NCBI GenBank assembly: GCA_965198235.1
Contig: OZ240248.1
Location: forward strand, 4,640,001 to 4,704,000
Direction of reading: 5' to 3'
DNA from: Candidatus Poribacteria bacterium
GTDB taxonomy: Bacteria; Poribacteria; WGA-4E; WGA-3G
DNA length: 64,000 bases
Below the pieces are notes generated by a model. That model did no database searches, had not been told where the DNA came from, and saw only the letters and a list, made by a program, of their open reading frames with translations. This document shows, in pieces, positions 1 through 6,128 of the stretch; within the stretch, counting starts at the first letter, position 1; the number at the start of each line of letters is the position of its first letter. Position numbers and translations under genes: made by a program.

Positions 1-1
1 C

Positions 2-682
2 GAAAAAGGTATTGCTATACTCTGCGAATACGTCGAAACGGTTCGCGACATTATCGGTTATGAGATTCCGCTCTCGGTCGATCATTTTGGGCATATCGGT
101 ATCGAGGACTGTATCCGTATCGCGAGGGCATTGGAGAAATACAATCTCGCGTGGTTAGAGGATATGGTGCCGTGGCAGTATACCGACCAGTATGTACGTC
201 TCTCAAATTCATGCGCCACCCCTATTTGCACAGGCGAGGACATCTATTGCAAAGAGGACTTTATGCCGCTGTTTGAGAGCCGCGGGATTGCTGTGGCTCA
301 CCCAGATATCGCGACATCGGGTGGGATTTTGGAGACGAAAAAGATTGGTGATTTGGCGGAAGATCACGGCATTGCAATGGCACTCCACATGGCAGGTACC
401 CCTATTTGTGCAATGGCGAGCGTCCACTGTGCCGCAGCGACATCAAATTTCTTGGCGCTGGAAAATCACTCCGTTGACAATCCGTGGTGGGATGAAATGG
501 TGACAGGCTTACCGAATCCGATCATCCAAAACGGTTATATCAATGTGCCAGAGACACCGGGTTTAGGTATTGACCTCAACGAAGAGGTCGTTCGGGAGCA
601 TCTCCATCCAGAGGAGACAGATTACTTCGCACCGACAACAGAATGGGATTCCGAACGTTCGCATGATAGGTTGTGGAGTTAG
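2..682 (+). CDS. Mandelate racemase/muconate lactonizing (enolase superfamily) enzyme, 5'-truncated by the window edge
   Basis: Frame is open from base 2 (EKGIAILCEYVETVRDIIGYEIPLSVDH...). Metal ligands D..., WLED and TGED; C-terminal PETPGLGIDLNEE. Confidence 0.85.
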   Translation, partial: EKGIAILCEYVETVRDIIGYEIPLSVDHFGHIGIEDCIRIARALEKYNLAWLEDMVPWQYTDQYVRLSNSCATPICTGEDIYCKEDFMPLFESRGIAVAHPDIATSGGILETKKIGDLAEDHGIAMALHMAGTPICAMASVHCAAATSNFLALENHSVDNPWWDEMVTGLPNPIIQNGYINVPETPGLGIDLNEEVVREHLHPEETDYFAPTTEWDSERSHDRLWS

Positions 683-794
683 GGATTTTGTTTATAAGGG
701 CGGACCTCCATATCCGCCCTACCTCAAACAAGTTGCAGCGTCCGGCAGATCGTTGAAAACCTGGATGTTACAATAATGCCCCATATCCCATCTA

Positions 795-1568
795 CTACAT
801 TTTCAGATTCGCCCACATTGTTGTGAGCTTACCATCTGCTTCGATAGCAGCAAATTCTTCAACATGGAACAGCAAATTCTCCATGAAAAGTTTTGCCATA
901 TCTTTCGTATTGTCATCGTTACCTGCGATATAGTATTTATCAGGGGCAATTGCCATCATCAGGAACTTACCTTTCCCGAATTCTGCTTCCATAATGACAG
1001 GTTCCCCTAAACTTTCCATCAGCACGTCAAAGCCCTTTTGAGAAGCGATGACTTCCCAGACAGTAGGCCAGCCCTGATGTCCCCAACCTTCAAACGTTTT
1101 TTGATCCATACGGTTTGGTTCGTTAAAGAGCTGATGGTCGGCTTGCAGTATTTCAAAAATTGGACTATCACGGTCACTCCGAACACAACTCAATCCAGGC
1201 GGCAACCAATCCACATTCGCTTCGTTCTGATCAGCTTGGGTCGGTTCCCAGACGATACCACCATTTTCGACGAAATCCTGAATCACCTTTGCATTCTTGT
1301 CGAGATTTTGGTGCAATCCAGCATTGTTAGTCAGCATGCTACCAATTAAAAAAATTTTATTTTCTACTTTGAGAGGTAGTTTTCCACCTTCAAGTGCCTT
1401 TGTCAGATCATCGTACTCAACTTTGAACTCATCCAGGGTCTGACGCAACGCATCAACCTTTGTCCACTCGTCAGCAAAATCAATAACAGCAATTTTAGCA
1501 GCTTCTACAGCCATTACACTCAAAACGAGAGTCAAAATACAGAGCCATGCAAACAAACGGGGATACAT
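795..1568 (-). CDS. Secreted protein (class I GATase-like fold) with Poribacteria-type C-terminal motif
   Basis: Signal peptide ending AVEA; C-terminus AIEADGKLTTMWANLKM; AGGAG RBS. Confidence 0.65.
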   Translation of the reverse strand: MYPRLFAWLCILTLVLSVMAVEAAKIAVIDFADEWTKVDALRQTLDEFKVEYDDLTKALEGGKLPLKVENKIFLIGSMLTNNAGLHQNLDKNAKVIQDFVENGGIVWEPTQADQNEANVDWLPPGLSCVRSDRDSPIFEILQADHQLFNEPNRMDQKTFEGWGHQGWPTVWEVIASQKGFDVLMESLGEPVIMEAEFGKGKFLMMAIAPDKYYIAGNDDNTKDMAKLFMENLLFHVEEFAAIEADGKLTTMWANLKM

Positions 1569-1660
1569 AAGTTAATCTCCTTACGTGTAACACGTGTTTT
1601 CATGATTTGAAGGGTTTTTTGCTCAATTGGTCCTATCAGGCCTCACATAAACATTATAGC

Positions 1661-1785
1661 GTGATAGACCTCACCCTAAAGGACGAGGCTTCTGCTAAAT
1701 AATTGCAGAAGCTTTCGTGCGATCAACGACCGTTGCTTTCTTACGAAAGTCTTACACAGCCTACTGCAACAGACGCTACCCCGAC
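1661..1785 (-). ncRNA. TnpB-type omegaRNA (reRNA) scaffold; guide would be the flank from 1660 downward
   Basis: GCGTCTG...GTAAGAC-TTTCGTAAGAAAG...GTTGA...GCAGAAGCC-hairpin-TCAC. TGAT/ATCA pseudoknot potential. 5' boundary is approximate. Confidence 0.7.
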
Positions 1786-1977
1786 TGCGACACACAAAGT
1801 GTCCTTACGAAATTTATTTTGAGACGTATATTTCAAATGGGATTCAGCATGACCTGTCTTTCCCTACTAACGTCTGTAAGCTACTACTTCTTGACCTTTA
1901 CTTTAGAGCTTTACACTATGGGAGTTTGATCAATAGGCGAGTAACAGCCCTCCATAGCAACCTTACACTCTGAAAGT

Positions 1978-2006
1978 ATTATAGCAGATTCAACAACATA
2001 TTTCAA
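1978..2006 (-). promoter_or_regulatory. Sigma70 promoter inside the ORF-less element
   Basis: TTGAAA-N17-TATAAT with extended TGn (TGCTATAAT). Confidence 0.75.
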
Positions 2007-2268
2007 GGAAAAGCAGCGTCTACATCTCCATGCTAAAGCATGGAGTTTTGACGCTGAAGATTATGATAAATCCAAATTTGGAAAAAAACACACACACAGG
2101 TTGGCGCGCGAAACAGACAGCGATAAACGCCATCAAAAGCAGATGTAACTGCCTGCACTCCGGGTTGCGAATGGACTTCAAAGTCAAAAGCATTAAGTGT
2201 TTGAGTAGCATTGACTTACCATGTGTGATGGCTGAGCCACTTGCTATAGCCGGTCGGCGAAGGAACAT

Positions 2269-2835
2269 TCAAAAAGCGTTTGCCACAGCCACCAAATCCA
2301 AAATATTGACGATCCCATCACCGTTAACGTCTGGTGCATCTGTGCCGAATCCACTGGCAACTGCCACCAAATCCAGAATGTTGACAGTCCCATCACCGTT
2401 GACATCCGCAGGTGTTCCGAGCCGTTTGAGATAGATTTCACCGTCTAAATCCGCGACAGTGTGAAGCGTGTTGCGCAAACCACTTTCTACACCTGTTGCC
2501 TGCTCTGATAGACGAATTTCTTGCGGTTTCCCACTGCGATTATAAATTGCCCAACTGTTGGTGAATTCTCGGATAAAGAGTCCTTCTATATTGCGATAGC
2601 GTTGCGCTTTTTCGCCGATAGGTTGTCCAAGATCGGCACTCCAGAAGTCATAATAGTAATGTTGATGTTGATGGTCGTGGATTTCACCACGGGTATGTTC
2701 GGCTGAATGCCCTTTCCAAATTTCATAGACATGAGTATGTATTGTACTACCGATACCAGACACATACTGGACATAGCCATCGGAATGTGTCAGACTTAAA
2801 GTCGTAAACAGACGCATCCAACGGCGGTTCGTTGT
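2269..2835 (-). pseudogene. C-terminal remnant of a secreted protein with two dockerin-like repeats
   Basis: NRRWMRLFTTLSLTHSDGY...; DVNGDGTVNILDLVAVA and DVNGDGIVNILDLVAVA. No N-terminus or signal peptide. Confidence 0.65.
2279..2406 (-). repeat. Two dockerin/EF-hand-like coding repeats, period 75 nt
   Basis: GCCACCAAATCCA..AT.TTGAC..TCCCATCACCGTT.AC.TC occurs twice. Confidence 0.8.
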
Positions 2836-3388
2836 TAACACATCCCTCCATGGTGATGCCTGATCCAGAGTCGCGCACCTCAACAGACCAGAGGGTTTGA
2901 TCTTTCTCGCGAACGCTCAGTGAAATCTGCATTTCAGCGTCTGAGGTATCGGTGAAACGTATCAGGTCTGAAACGGAGCTGAGATCAAAACAACGAATGA
3001 GTTGATTGCTGAAAATTTCAGGAGCGTTGAGGACAGATTGCAGCTGGGCGCGTATCTTTTGAGGTAAATCTGAGAATTTGTACGGTAACGCATCTTTCCA
3101 TAGTTTTTCGAGAATTGCCCTAATTTCTTCCTCCTTGTCGTAAGCCGGCAACCCACGTCGTGTTAATCTTAAGTCCAAAACATCATGGTGAGACCAAGGA
3201 AATCGTGAGAAACCAGCAAAACTACTGTACAATGCATAGATGAGTGCTGCGAGATAGGTCTTACCGGTATTGCTCTCACCGACGAACACAGTCAGTGGGC
3301 GTAGATCTATCTCTGCCTTCTCTATCGGTCCGAAGTTTTGCACCTCGATGTGGACGTTGGTGGGCTGTATGTCTCTGACTTCGTTCAC
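2747..3388 (-). pseudogene. N-terminal half of an ABC/AAA_15-type ATPase (AbiEii/OLD-like), truncated
   Basis: IEVQNFGPI...LTVFVGESNTGKT (Walker A). No signature or Walker B; it runs out of frame into the dockerin remnant near 2835. Confidence 0.7.
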
Positions 3389-3516
3389 TGTTTTGTCTCC
3401 CGCGAGTGGTGGATTTAAGTCCAATTATACACGTATTTGTAGCCGACTGCAAGGAAAAGGAACTTTGATAACAGGGTCATTCAATTGTAGGTTTTTTGAG
3501 CGTTTTCGCCAAGGCA

Positions 3517-3540
3517 TCGCGAGCTGGAGCTCGCTCCTAC
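3517..3540 (-). repeat. GTAG-family REP-like palindrome (one of about 9 in the window)
   Basis: GTAGGAGCGAGCTCCAGCTCGCGA on the minus strand. Confidence 0.65.
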
Positions 3541-3652
3541 AGAAGAGGGAGTTTCAACGACCGACCGAAAATATGGAGAATTGAATGGCCCTGACTTTGA
3601 TAAGATATAACAGAAGGCGGCCACAAAACCTCGAAACAATCCATAATGATAC

Positions 3653-4780
3653 CTACGGAATAACGGCAACGTAAACCTGCGAATGCCCTGAAACATCTGA
3701 TGTATACACAACAGCTGTCTCATCAGGACTGAATGAAGGATGCGGGTGCGTCCACTGCGGTCCGTAGACCGTGTCCACCTTCATCTCCATCCAACTCAGG
3801 GATTTCTCTCGATCGCCTGCTTGCTGTGCTGCCGCCCAATCCTCAGCGAGTGCATACCGGTCGGTTTTCCACTGACTGCCGCTGGACGAACTCTGCGGAT
3901 AACAGATCGGCGTATGTTCGCCTGTCTCCACGTCAATAAGCCGCAAACCGATATCGGGATGGACGGTGTCGCACAATACTTTCGACCCGTCGCGATTGCT
4001 GGCAATATGCCACGCGTTGAAATCGGCAATCGTCTGCATCTGTAGGGTTTCCAGAGACATACGTCGAAGTGCATAGGGCCAATGTGTCACGATCAGTTCA
4101 TCCAACGCACCAAGGAAGGTTTCGTGGACGAGAAATTCGTTATTATCGTGCTGATAGAGCGATCGGTTTTCTGTGCCGTTCCGCTTAATAGTCCACATCC
4201 GAGGTGCCGGATCCCCGGAATACGCGATGAGATCAGGGTATTTCGGATGAAACTGGGGATGGATAATCGTCTGATCCGGGGAGGTGTAGATGACCTCGCC
4301 GCCGTTGCCATCGGTAGCGGTTACGGCGATGTGCGATTTGTCGTCGCGCTTCATCGCCGTTACGATATACCATTCGTCTGCACTGACGCTACACTCACCG
4401 AGGCTTCCACCGGGGAATTCTGCAAGTACACGTTCCTCAAGGGTATTGAGATGGATCGCTTTTATGGTGTCTGCTTGCGTGTAAAAGAGTTCAGTGCCGT
4501 CTTTGGAAATCACGCCGGAATAGCCGTGAACCTCATCGGCATCTGTCAACTGGACGATGTCGCCATTAGGGAATTCCAACTTGAAAAAATTCGGATTTCC
4601 TGAACGGTAGGAGGTGAAAATGAGATGTTCTTGGTCGGGGGTGAACGAAGATGTTAGGAAGTAGAGGTTATGGTTGATGGAAGTATCGTTTGTGAGTTGA
4701 TAGATGTGTGTGCCTGTTTGATTGTCTTGAAATTCGCGTAGTTCTGAAGGATGAACGGACGCTTTGGCGTAGTTTGGCAT
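3653..4780 (-). CDS. Oligogalacturonate lyase-family beta-propeller protein
   Basis: LYF..SFTPD, HPQF, HE, WH and HPHPSFSPD motifs. Confidence 0.75.
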   Translation of the reverse strand: MPNYAKASVHPSELREFQDNQTGTHIYQLTNDTSINHNLYFLTSSFTPDQEHLIFTSYRSGNPNFFKLEFPNGDIVQLTDADEVHGYSGVISKDGTELFYTQADTIKAIHLNTLEERVLAEFPGGSLGECSVSADEWYIVTAMKRDDKSHIAVTATDGNGGEVIYTSPDQTIIHPQFHPKYPDLIAYSGDPAPRMWTIKRNGTENRSLYQHDNNEFLVHETFLGALDELIVTHWPYALRRMSLETLQMQTIADFNAWHIASNRDGSKVLCDTVHPDIGLRLIDVETGEHTPICYPQSSSSGSQWKTDRYALAEDWAAAQQAGDREKSLSWMEMKVDTVYGPQWTHPHPSFSPDETAVVYTSDVSGHSQVYVAVIP

Positions 4781-4816
4781 ACTTTGCTCCTCGTAAGTCT
4801 GTTGATGAGATAAATT

Positions 4817-5650
4817 TTACGAATTGAATAGGTAGTTTAACAGATGTGCGCTTTCGCGGAAATCGGGGATGATGATGTCTGCACCGGCGCGAATAAGACG
4901 TTCCCGTTTGTCGGCATTCATATTGTACATATTGTCCTCAACAGACGCGACACCGACAGCGATTGCTCCCACTTCTTTGGCGTTTTCGATTTCCACATAG
5001 CCGTCTCCAACGATGAGCAGTTCGCTTCCGCTAAGGTTGAAATCCGTGATGATCTTCTGGATGACCATGGCTTTGGAAAACTTCTTATATTCCCGCAGTG
5101 CGCCGAAAATGCCACCGTTAAGGTATTCCGCAACACCGAGGAGTGCCGCTTCGTTTTTGACGAATTCGACGTCTGTACCGCTGGCGAGATAGCAGCTTAT
5201 CCCTATCTCGCGCAGGCTTTGAAGAAATTCGAGGGACATCGGCACGCGAAGTGGATCAGCAGACAGCGTTCCCGCCGCGAGTCCAGCAATCCGTTCCTTA
5301 ACAACGGGCAGCAGTCGGCGATTATATTCATCTTTATACGCGAGTGGATCCTTCGGTGTCCCGCCACGTTTCTCGATCTCCTCGCTTAACTGGATCATCT
5401 GATAGATAGTTTGCTTACCGGTCAGCCTGTCCACAAATTCAACAACAATTGCCTCAAGTTGTTCCTGCGTTTCTGTGGTATCTGTTTCCGTTTGAAGGCA
5501 TTCAACCATCATCGGGACCATTACATTCTGCCAACCGTCTCGGATGAGGGAGATTGTCCCGTCAAAATCGAAGACAACATGACGAATATTTCCGGTTTGG
5601 ATTTCACGATGGATTTCAATTGCGGTATTATCCAAAAAAATGTTCTGCAT
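4817..5650 (-). CDS. HAD-family hydrolase
   Basis: FDFDGT, ASGT and VGDG motifs. Confidence 0.85.
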   Translation of the reverse strand: MQNIFLDNTAIEIHREIQTGNIRHVVFDFDGTISLIRDGWQNVMVPMMVECLQTETDTTETQEQLEAIVVEFVDRLTGKQTIYQMIQLSEEIEKRGGTPKDPLAYKDEYNRRLLPVVKERIAGLAAGTLSADPLRVPMSLEFLQSLREIGISCYLASGTDVEFVKNEAALLGVAEYLNGGIFGALREYKKFSKAMVIQKIITDFNLSGSELLIVGDGYVEIENAKEVGAIAVGVASVEDNMYNMNADKRERLIRAGADIIIPDFRESAHLLNYLFNS

Positions 5651-5785
5651 ATTTTTAACTATGACGTTTTGCTATGATCTGACCGTTGGCCAGGTCATCG
5701 TTTTCTGATTAAGTCTGTAGGGGCACGTAAAAGACTACATGCCATGCGGGAGTCGCTTACAGTCTCAGAGATATTCAATTCTCCC

Positions 5786-5845
5786 GTAGGAGGGATCTCC
5801 AAATCCCGACTTCGTCTTCTGTAGGGGCGATCTCCTGATCGCGAC
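5786..5845 (+). repeat. Tandem GTAG REP-like palindromes
   Basis: GTAGGAGGGATCTCCAAATCCCGAC and GTAGGGGCGATCTCCTGATCGCGAC. Confidence 0.6.
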
Positions 5846-6128
5846 ATTCTGCACAAAACGGGTAGAGAACCGAAAATTGAATGGCTCTGTTATAGCCTAA
5901 AAAGGCATTGATTTCCCTTCTCTAATCTGATAGTATAATAGCGTTCAGGGTGTTAAGCAAGCATTTTTAATTATACCTTGCGGTTCGGTGAGATGGGTTC
6001 GGAGCATAAATGTGCTTCTCCGTAGACCCGCTCTCCATTACATTACGAGCTACGCGCCTGAGTTTATCAGAGCAGTTTGAAAGGCGTATCGCTCTTAAAA
6101 TTGCCCAAACTTTAATAAAATAAAACTG

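Follow-up and report, generated by a model that had tools for sequence, protein, structure and literature searches.

The window is a stretch of 64,000 nucleotides from the genome of Candidatus Poribacteria bacterium (contig OZ240248.1, positions 4,640,001 to 4,704,000), and its minus strand carries a short transposon of the IS200/IS605 type. Read on that strand from 2070 to 1661, the order is TTAT, a left hairpin, a promoter, a region (1972–1785) flagged in an original prediction as structured RNA, and a 3′ part of about 128 nt, which terminates with a second hairpin and TCTATCAC at 1661. This copy is located in intergenic DNA. Compared across its copies, the flagged stretch proves to be a conserved RNA domain with pseudoknots, situated 5′ of a TnpB guide RNA on a protein-less transposon of a sponge symbiont. 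The main features are the following:

1661–2065, minus strand: ORF-less IS200/IS605-type element, PATE-like, 405 bp (boundaries from empty sites)
2066–2069, minus strand: TTAT target/transposon-adjacent motif, directly 5′ of the element (empty sites and junctions)
2026–2045, minus strand: left-end subterminal hairpin CTCCATG-CTTTAG-CATGGAG (conserved; common to full-length tnpB/tnpA elements)
1978–2006, minus strand: sigma-70-type promoter TTGAAA-17 nt-TATAAT with upstream TG (11/12 matches, conserved in copies)
1661–1788, minus strand: omegaRNA-like scaffold, ending in the right-end hairpin and TCTATCAC (nhmmer homology, covarying helices)
1641–1660, minus strand: putative guide, i.e., the flank, about 16–20 nt past the right end (assigned from its position)

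The boundaries of the element are given by its empty sites. The site is uninterrupted in three related genomes (L138, L139, and L140), where window position 2066 is joined straight to 1660 and the right-flank sequence (1641–1660) comes directly after TTAT. The element therefore comprises 1661–2065, or 405 bp, without target duplication. TTATC is present at the left junction of all 36 distinct insertion sites when the printed junctions are read by eye; a scripted tally gave 35 TTATC and one TAATT, the latter being a pattern artefact caused by an earlier match in L091. The right flanks are unrelated and different at all 36 sites. Element size at these sites ranges from 403 to 493 bp, including six loci of a second genus, and every extracted copy is short. 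The own genome (5.17 Mb) contains two further full-length copies with 77–78% identity, and matches were obtained in 34 of the 36 same-genus relatives sampled, often as full-length copies of 400–420 nt. Subterminal imperfect palindromes occur at both ends, namely the left hairpin and the right hairpin before TCTATCAC; both are conserved, and the right one covaries.

No conserved ORF was found within the element. The only ORFs overlapping the flagged region are of 31–70 aa, and the ATG within GCTATGG of the window is ATA in all other same-subfamily copies shown in the alignment of 39 copies (A3). Genes predicted to encode TnpB and the Y1 transposase TnpA are present intact in the same genome. 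The TnpB zinc-ribbon domain PF07282 has 35 matches, and a 403-aa ORF comprises both PF01385 and PF07282. The Y1 transposase domain PF01797 has six matches, one of which adjoins a left end like those seen in short elements; an ORF of 139 aa contains the domain. Large ORFs (≥200 aa) near the 36 insertion sites are co-oriented with the element in 12 cases and convergent in 12 (a hand count on crude ORF calls). The idea of a mobile promoter was dropped on this count, which gives no orientation bias towards downstream genes.

The original prediction had located the flagged region between a promoter and an omegaRNA, on an ORF-less IS605-family derivative and in the position held by tnpB in full-length relatives. 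All of this is borne out, with TTGAAA-17-TATAAT upstream at 2006–1978 and the omegaRNA-like 3′ part downstream. From the promoter, transcription is predicted to start at about 1970–1971. A terminator-like hairpin is present at 2089–2110, ahead of the element, and no terminator-like site was found on the minus strand within or after it. The stretch is represented in four metatranscriptome runs from a single sponge study. In one of them, X1, mismatch-free contigs cover 1765–1868 at a depth of 411 and 1839–1983 at a depth of 204.5, the depths at conserved parts being sums over related copies, while the depth upstream of the promoter (2093–2400) is about 9. A further contig, 1493–1786 (four differences, depth 146), leads from the scaffold through into the downstream gene; like the other RNA contigs, it carries no strand, start, or end. 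RNA-library contigs thus cover the flagged region far more deeply than its upstream flank.

The flagged region and its immediate surroundings consist of two sub-domains, D1 and D2, whose parts are listed below from 5′ to 3′ on the minus strand:

1880–1975, minus strand: sub-domain D1, with P0, GGTTG, P1, GTAAA, PK-a, and PK-b (P1 from covariation; P0 and the PK helices from the energies of cognate arms)
1968–1975 with 1901–1908, minus strand: closing helix P0 (cognate versus non-cognate arm energies)
1958–1962, minus strand: invariant GGTTG of D1
1952–1958 with 1915–1921, minus strand: hairpin P1, GCTATGG/CCATAGT (covariation)
1941–1948 with 1880–1887, minus strand: pseudoknot PK-b (cognate versus permuted duplex energies)
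1928–1933 with 1891–1896, minus strand: pseudoknot PK-a (cognate versus permuted duplex energies)
1910–1914, minus strand: invariant GTAAA of D1
1789–1875, minus strand: sub-domain D2, with P4 enclosing P5 and P6, then TTTCGTAAGG and P7 (covariation)
1870–1875 with 1822–1827, minus strand: P4, AGACGT/ACGTCT (covariation)
1861–1864 with 1839–1842, minus strand: P5, GGGA/TCCC (covariation)
1854–1856 with 1845–1847, minus strand: P6, CAG/CTG (covariation)
1839–1864, minus strand: P5/P6 hairpin, with nucleotide similarity to tnpB codons P-K-T-G-Q-A-E-G just upstream of the RuvC-I aspartate (covariance-model and local alignments)
1803–1812, minus strand: conserved single strand TTTCGTAAGG of D2
1799–1803 with 1789–1793, minus strand: hairpin P7, GACAC/GTGTC (covariation)

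Folding of the single sequence gives a minimum free energy of −37.5 kcal/mol versus −39.5 ± 3.9 kcal/mol for shuffled sequences (z +0.52), and 138 of 200 shuffles fold as well or better; the plus strand gives a z of +0.04. The comparison of copies indicates that the structure is nevertheless real, and that it is visible through comparison only and not by single-sequence folding energy. All six stems quoted in the original prediction are present on the minus strand where it had put them, and its view that they form a maintained structure is upheld for P1 and P4–P7, which covary at a level that none of 500 shuffles attains, and is extended by two pseudoknots that covary among 11 subfamilies. The check for covariation among homologues that it had proposed thus gives a strong signal in P1 and P4–P7.

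In alignment A3, 98.5% of the P1 cells are paired versus 77.3% after shuffling, changes on both sides occur in six of the seven pairs, and 0/500 shuffles match the covariation score. One P1 pair is GU in 25 of the 39 copies, which is G-T on the sense strand. For P4–P7, alignment A5 (50 matches, 34 distinct) has 93.8% of cells paired versus 73.1% shuffled, with both-side changes in 15 of 18 pairs; A5 was built from the covariance model R1 and is fitted to that model, which favours structure. The covariation score is 0.482 versus 0.162 shuffled (0/500 as high), and slid controls remain at or below 0.111. RNAalifold predicts 50 pairs on A3, and 36 of these have compensatory changes. The RNAalifold pairs between columns 80–83 and 114–117 were discarded, as their seeming covariation is an alignment shift of the invariant AAGC/GCTT.

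The 5′ end of D1 pairs with the segment following the invariant GTAAA to form P0. The sequences of the P0 arms vary among subfamilies while their complementarity is kept, and cognate arms average −8.1 kcal/mol versus −5.9 kcal/mol for non-cognate arms. Two further pairings, PK-a and PK-b, join the inside of the P1 hairpin to an A-rich linker past P0, and at least eight complementary versions of PK-a and at least six of PK-b were counted. Since P0 and P1 covary too, PK-a and PK-b are either pseudoknots or alternative states. MAFFT splits the strands of different subfamilies into different columns, and the pseudoknots were therefore tested by comparing cognate with permuted duplex energies. Over 11 subfamily representatives, the cognate sum for both blocks is −167.1 kcal/mol versus −121.7 ± 10.7 kcal/mol when permuted, with 0/20000 permutations as low. 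PK-a alone is likewise never equalled (0/20000), and PK-b alone is equalled in 108 of 20000. Between domains, the permutations reaching as low are 210/5000 for D2 with the scaffold, 578/5000 for D1 with the scaffold, and 2767/5000 for D1 with D2, none of which is convincing as covarying pairing. The unpaired motifs GGTTG, GTAAA, GGGAAAGA, and TTCGTAAGG are invariant across two genera.

Two of the pairings in the original prediction are not supported. The helix CTTAC/GTAAG (1876–1880 with 1804–1808) is paired in 83.3% of the A5 cells versus 81.8% when shuffled, with 30/500 shuffles as high. The alternative pairing of ACAGACG with CGTCTGT, offered as a switch involving the omegaRNA, is present in this copy, but its conservation on A3 is not above that of shuffled alignments (66.3% versus 67.4%; 434/500 as high). 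A K-turn where P5 meets P6 was also considered, as was a hammerhead-like core, and both were rejected by eye against the consensus, as key positions vary among copies.

The 3′ part identifies the RNA to which this domain belongs. An nhmmer profile of the last 128 positions matches more than 12 full-length tnpB elements, directly past PF07282 to their right ends, with E of about 1e-6. The original prediction of a fusion 5′ to a TnpB-type guide RNA is thus supported by the homology of the 3′ part to the 3′ and right ends of these tnpB elements. A divergent short element of the own genome, e2520, has 88% identity over 104 nt with the right end of IS_2531k. In contrast to the scaffold, profiles of the flagged region (nhmmer, filters off, E up to 10) match nothing in the own genome beyond its three short copies. 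Model R1 is likewise significant in short copies only, with one extra truncated remnant at E 0.134. Among the copies examined, the module is restricted to short elements as far as these profiles detect it. Relative to full-length elements, hairpin P7 has been inserted immediately ahead of the scaffold that both share.

A tblastn search of 25 TnpB ORFs against 40 short elements has a best E of 0.19 and gives no sense-strand match collinear with tnpB. The scaffold is homologous to the tnpB 3′ end, the module is unmatched in full-length elements, and this search is empty; the flagged region therefore occupies the place of tnpB and is not a decayed tnpB frame. The claim that the region does not consist of degraded tnpB codons stands in that no frame survives, but it needs an exception for a patch of about 20–30 nt in P5/P6 that resembles tnpB. 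Rfam, the first check that had been suggested, yields no family, with 0 matches at E ≤ 1 among 4227 families for window positions 1–6000 and nine related loci.

The patch in P5/P6 was recovered in two ways. With filters off, R1 has weak matches (E 0.15–0.28) in eight tnpB ORFs, all at the codons E-P-K-T-G-Q-A-E-G-F-D-F-G before the RuvC-I aspartate. The similarity extends over about 20–30 nt; the centre of P5/P6 is nearly identical, and the flanking stem is present with its G and C strands swapped. In local alignments against 25 tnpB ORFs, the window type is best at the RuvC-I-adjacent site of its cognate family with a score of 26, which 12 of 300 shuffles equal. The e2520 type is best at the same site in its cognate tnpB family, with which it shares the right end at 88%, and its score of 30 is reached by 0/300 shuffles. 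A third subfamily, g9_L130, also aligns best at this site in its cognate gene (5/100 shuffles as good), whereas the L088 type and g9_L132 do not, so that three of the five tested subfamilies have this trace. It maps about 600 nt upstream of the scaffold-adjacent position in tnpB. These alignments lend moderate support to a reading in which a fragment of the tnpB coding region survived and was afterwards maintained as a hairpin in RNA.

The distribution of the elements is narrow in taxonomic terms. Of 151 genomes sampled across the phylum, 37 contain the D2 module according to R1, and all of these belong to one family: 24/56 genomes of the own genus and 12/38 of a second genus, compared with 0/51 in the other sampled families. 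One genome of the second genus has 18 matches. The seven loci fetched from that genus are all built like the window element, and their helices add further compensatory variants. Six of the loci are complete short elements without an ORF; in the seventh, the left end looks degenerate. In the own genome, e2520 and e400 are divergent short elements with shared architecture and a different right end. R1 is not significant on either (E 0.83 and 5.6), and their kinship is based on reading of the sequences, cognate-pairing tests, and blastn of the ends. A motif scan of the genomes of 185,579 species returned 17 stretches, 16 from Poribacteria and one from Bacteroidia, the latter being about the number expected by chance. 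The similarity to cyanobacterial IS605 derivatives mentioned in the original prediction was not confirmed: none of the 17 stretches returned by this narrow pattern is cyanobacterial. Such elements are present in many copies in two sponge-symbiont genera, where they form a lineage of long standing.

Related systems have been described in part. According to Meers et al. (2023, bioRxiv 10.1101/2023.03.14.532601), PATEs "often encode omegaRNAs", which must be acted on in trans. Since omegaRNA-bearing PATEs are mentioned there, the element class is already known. The present element resembles a PATE in its minimal IS605-type ends, its lack of a protein gene, its right-end omegaRNA used in trans by TnpB, and its movement in trans by TnpA, the last two being presumed here. 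It differs in what lies between the ends: instead of a bare spacer, there are a promoter and a pseudoknotted domain of about 190 nt that is conserved across two genera. Nety et al. (2023, PMC10278001) report processed omegaRNAs of 79–466 nt, 5′ processing by TnpB, and an inhibitory cis-regulatory region in tnpB mRNA. The RNA of the window resembles such a full-length IS605/IS1341-type TnpB omegaRNA, as its 3′ 128 nt are homologous to tnpB 3′/right ends of the same genome and end at the boundary beside the guide, and its total length is within the reported range. In contrast, it is predicted to arise from its own promoter and not to be cut from tnpB mRNA, and nothing comparable to its 5′ domain was detected immediately upstream of the scaffold in full-length elements.

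The inhibitory region of AmaTnpB mRNA (Nety et al. 2023) is an internal piece of tnpB with a role at the RNA level, and such a piece has apparently been retained here in an ORF-less element. The AmaTnpB region, however, adjoins RuvC-II and is presumed to pair with the omegaRNA, whereas the piece found here adjoins RuvC-I, and its pairing with the scaffold is weak at best. IStrons (Zedaveinyte et al. 2023, bioRxiv 10.1101/2023.11.20.567912) are IS605/IS607 elements with a group I intron and an omegaRNA. They share with the present element a structured 5′ RNA, a 3′ omegaRNA, and ORF-less derivatives; the present element differs by having neither a group I intron nor another Rfam family, by its own promoter, and by the intergenic location of this copy. 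No module of this kind was seen in the cited passages of Meers et al. or Nety et al., whose figures or extended data may show similar 5′ domains, and no literature linking Poribacteria with TnpB was found. Set against these reports, the novelty lies in the conserved pseudoknotted 5′ domain, which has its own promoter and, as read from the alignments, derives in part from tnpB; the class of omegaRNA-bearing PATEs is known.

The explanation that we favour, with a likelihood slightly above even, is that the flagged 188 nt make up the conserved, structured 5′ two-thirds of a promoter-driven RNA of about 310 nt, the 3′ third of which is a TnpB omegaRNA scaffold, and that they would serve as an accessory 5′ domain of a stand-alone omegaRNA used in trans. 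The promoter of the 405-bp element would drive this RNA, with the DNA flanking the right end acting as guide. TnpA would move the element in trans, and TnpB of full-length relatives would bind the 3′ scaffold, also in trans. Cutting by TnpB of the vacated site, made up of TTAT and flank, would keep the element in place. The 5′ domain would replace the body of the tnpB mRNA as an accessory module and may shield the guide RNA and help it to fold correctly, or may gate its maturation or loading. Part of D2 would have been taken from tnpB coding sequence and afterwards kept as structure. A role of the 5′ domain in stability, maturation, or regulation may thus be proposed from its position and conservation. 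The omegaRNA lengths, the 5′ processing, and the inhibitory tnpB mRNA region reported by Nety et al. make accessory roles plausible. Full-length cognates have no detectable module upstream of the scaffold, so that TnpB is not obviously dependent on it, which argues for another role.

Two other readings also take the region as RNA. The 5′ domain could be an autonomous functional RNA, either a self-processing ribozyme or a switch that senses a ligand or protein and controls guide RNA release, guide RNA activity, or read-through. The double-pseudoknot architecture with invariant unpaired motifs across two genera, the contig that extends from the scaffold into the downstream gene, and the different pseudoknotted leader of full-length relatives in the same position are in line with this. 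The empty Rfam search, the lack of any minus-strand site resembling a terminator within or beyond the element, the unconserved switch pairing, the absence of covarying pairing between D1 and the scaffold (578/5000), and the even orientation of neighbouring ORFs speak against it, and we regard it as unlikely. In its boldest form, which we hold to be equally doubtful, the 190-nt double-pseudoknot domain would be a new functional RNA class of guide-RNA-only transposons, self-processing or sensing, which decides the release of the omegaRNA or its loading onto the TnpB of other elements. A somewhat lower chance is given to a reading in which TnpB binds, in its entirety, one long scaffold of the canonical omegaRNA kind, with the region simply as its upstream part. 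The lengths of processed omegaRNAs reported by Nety et al. would accommodate this, the region abuts the scaffold with no gap, and TTCGTAAGG resembles, by eye, TTCTTAAGG at equal distance from the scaffold in full-length family A. Full-length cognates, however, have tnpB coding sequence upstream of the scaffold with no detectable similarity to the module, the sole trace of the module in tnpB lies about 600 nt further upstream, and P7 is an insertion relative to these elements.

Elements of the IS200/IS605 type transpose as single strands, and the stems could act in single-stranded DNA during TnpA-mediated transposition and not in RNA. Covariation cannot separate RNA from top-strand DNA, and the G-T pairs on the sense strand (the P1 pair that is GU in 25/39 copies) also speak for this reading. 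It is nonetheless very improbable, as full-length relatives have the same ends without the module, and the region is abundant in RNA libraries and lies downstream of a conserved strong promoter. The smallest chance, a slim one, is assigned to a neutral remnant of an internally deleted tnpB gene. The local similarity of P5/P6 to tnpB upstream of RuvC-I in three of the five subfamilies is what would be cited for it; against it are the tblastn result without a collinear sense-strand match, the strong compensatory change in P1, P4–P7, and both pseudoknots, and the architecture kept in two genera and in divergent subfamilies.

ORF-less IS605 elements carrying a guide RNA have previously been noted only in passing. 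The present element adds a strong promoter of its own and a covarying pseudoknotted domain without counterpart in protein-coding relatives, which together make a concrete and testable RNA motif that is absent from Rfam. If the accessory 5′ domain controls stability, maturation, or loading of the guide, this would suggest that a guide RNA can evolve independently of the nuclease gene and that coding sequence can be recycled into RNA structure, and natural 5′ modules of this type might be used to tune TnpB guide RNAs in genome editing. If the domain is instead a new RNA class, an RNA parasite of an RNA-guided nuclease would have built its own regulatory domain, partly from exapted tnpB.

A relation of D1 to the tnpB 5′ UTR was considered because of GGTTG-like and GTAAAG-like motifs and a closing helix recognized by eye, and it is unsupported by nhmmer --max or by the leader model R2. 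With filters off, R2 gives best E values of 0.12–8 on 33 short-element loci; the three alignments inspected fall on the opposite strand or elsewhere, and no sense-strand leader was identified among them. The full-length relatives, for their part, have a leader that is missing from Rfam and precedes tnpB in the position corresponding to that of the module, and this leader is separate, different, and likewise pseudoknotted.

A 5′UTR leader of ~100 nt is common to the full-length, tnpB-carrying relatives of the short ORF-less elements in the window's own genome (alignment A6, 13 sequences). The alignment comprises the leaders of the four loci listed here and of 9 further loci.

L009, 518-621: tnpB leader, member of A6
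L012, 2659-2762, minus strand: tnpB leader, member of A6
L018, 464-567: tnpB leader, member of A6
L021, 2581-2684, minus strand: tnpB leader, member of A6

The leader is closed by a helix and contains the invariant stem GGCAGACA/TGTCTGCC, a hairpin at its apex, and a pseudoknot of 7 bp. Pairing holds in 96.8% of cells across the aligned leaders, and the pseudoknot has both-sided changes in 6 of its 7 pairs, a level reached in 0 of 500 shuffles. An Rfam search with the leader gave no match, and the leader appears to be a tnpB motif that has not been described.

Within the coding sequence, the tnpB P-x-T-G codons form a hairpin a short way 5′ of the RuvC-I aspartate in several TnpB families.

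Around G000:C1 366338-366487 (own genome), and homologous sites in other tnpB genes: P-x-T-G codon hairpin

Examples of its arms are GAACCC/GGGTTC, CACT/AGTG changed to CATT/AATG, and CAAC/GTTG. In some cases, the arm changes are compensatory despite amino-acid alteration, and the hairpin possibly represents structure at the RNA or DNA level within the tnpB gene.

The window element is flanked by two ORFs, and a terminator-like hairpin lies close upstream of the insertion site.

2272-2883, minus strand: upstream ORF with a terminal dockerin type I domain (PF00404, E 2.3e-7)
2089-2110, minus strand: terminator-like hairpin with T-run, 3′ of the upstream gene
798-1568: downstream ORF of 257 aa, without a match in a Pfam search

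Other short elements of the same genome are divergent or reduced.

L112, G000:C1:2520570-2521010: divergent ORF-less element
L113, G000:C1:400820-401300: divergent ORF-less element
L114, G000:C1:1567300-1567720: truncated or degenerate copy

L112 and L113 have the same plan of leader, D2 (the sub-domain with stems P4-P7), and omegaRNA-like scaffold as the window element, and their right end (..GCTATGAC) has 88% identity over 104 nt to another tnpB family, IS_2531k. L114 keeps part of D2 and the scaffold, and its left end is not recognisable. At G006:C1:361979-362105, in another genome, a left-end match (query 1-45) directly adjoins a right-end match (query 334-411), which suggests a still smaller, ends-only element of ~127 bp. 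Genome G084, from a second genus, has 18 matches to the D2 covariance model (including L130 and L131); because 14 of these score the same, a recent copy burst is suggested there.
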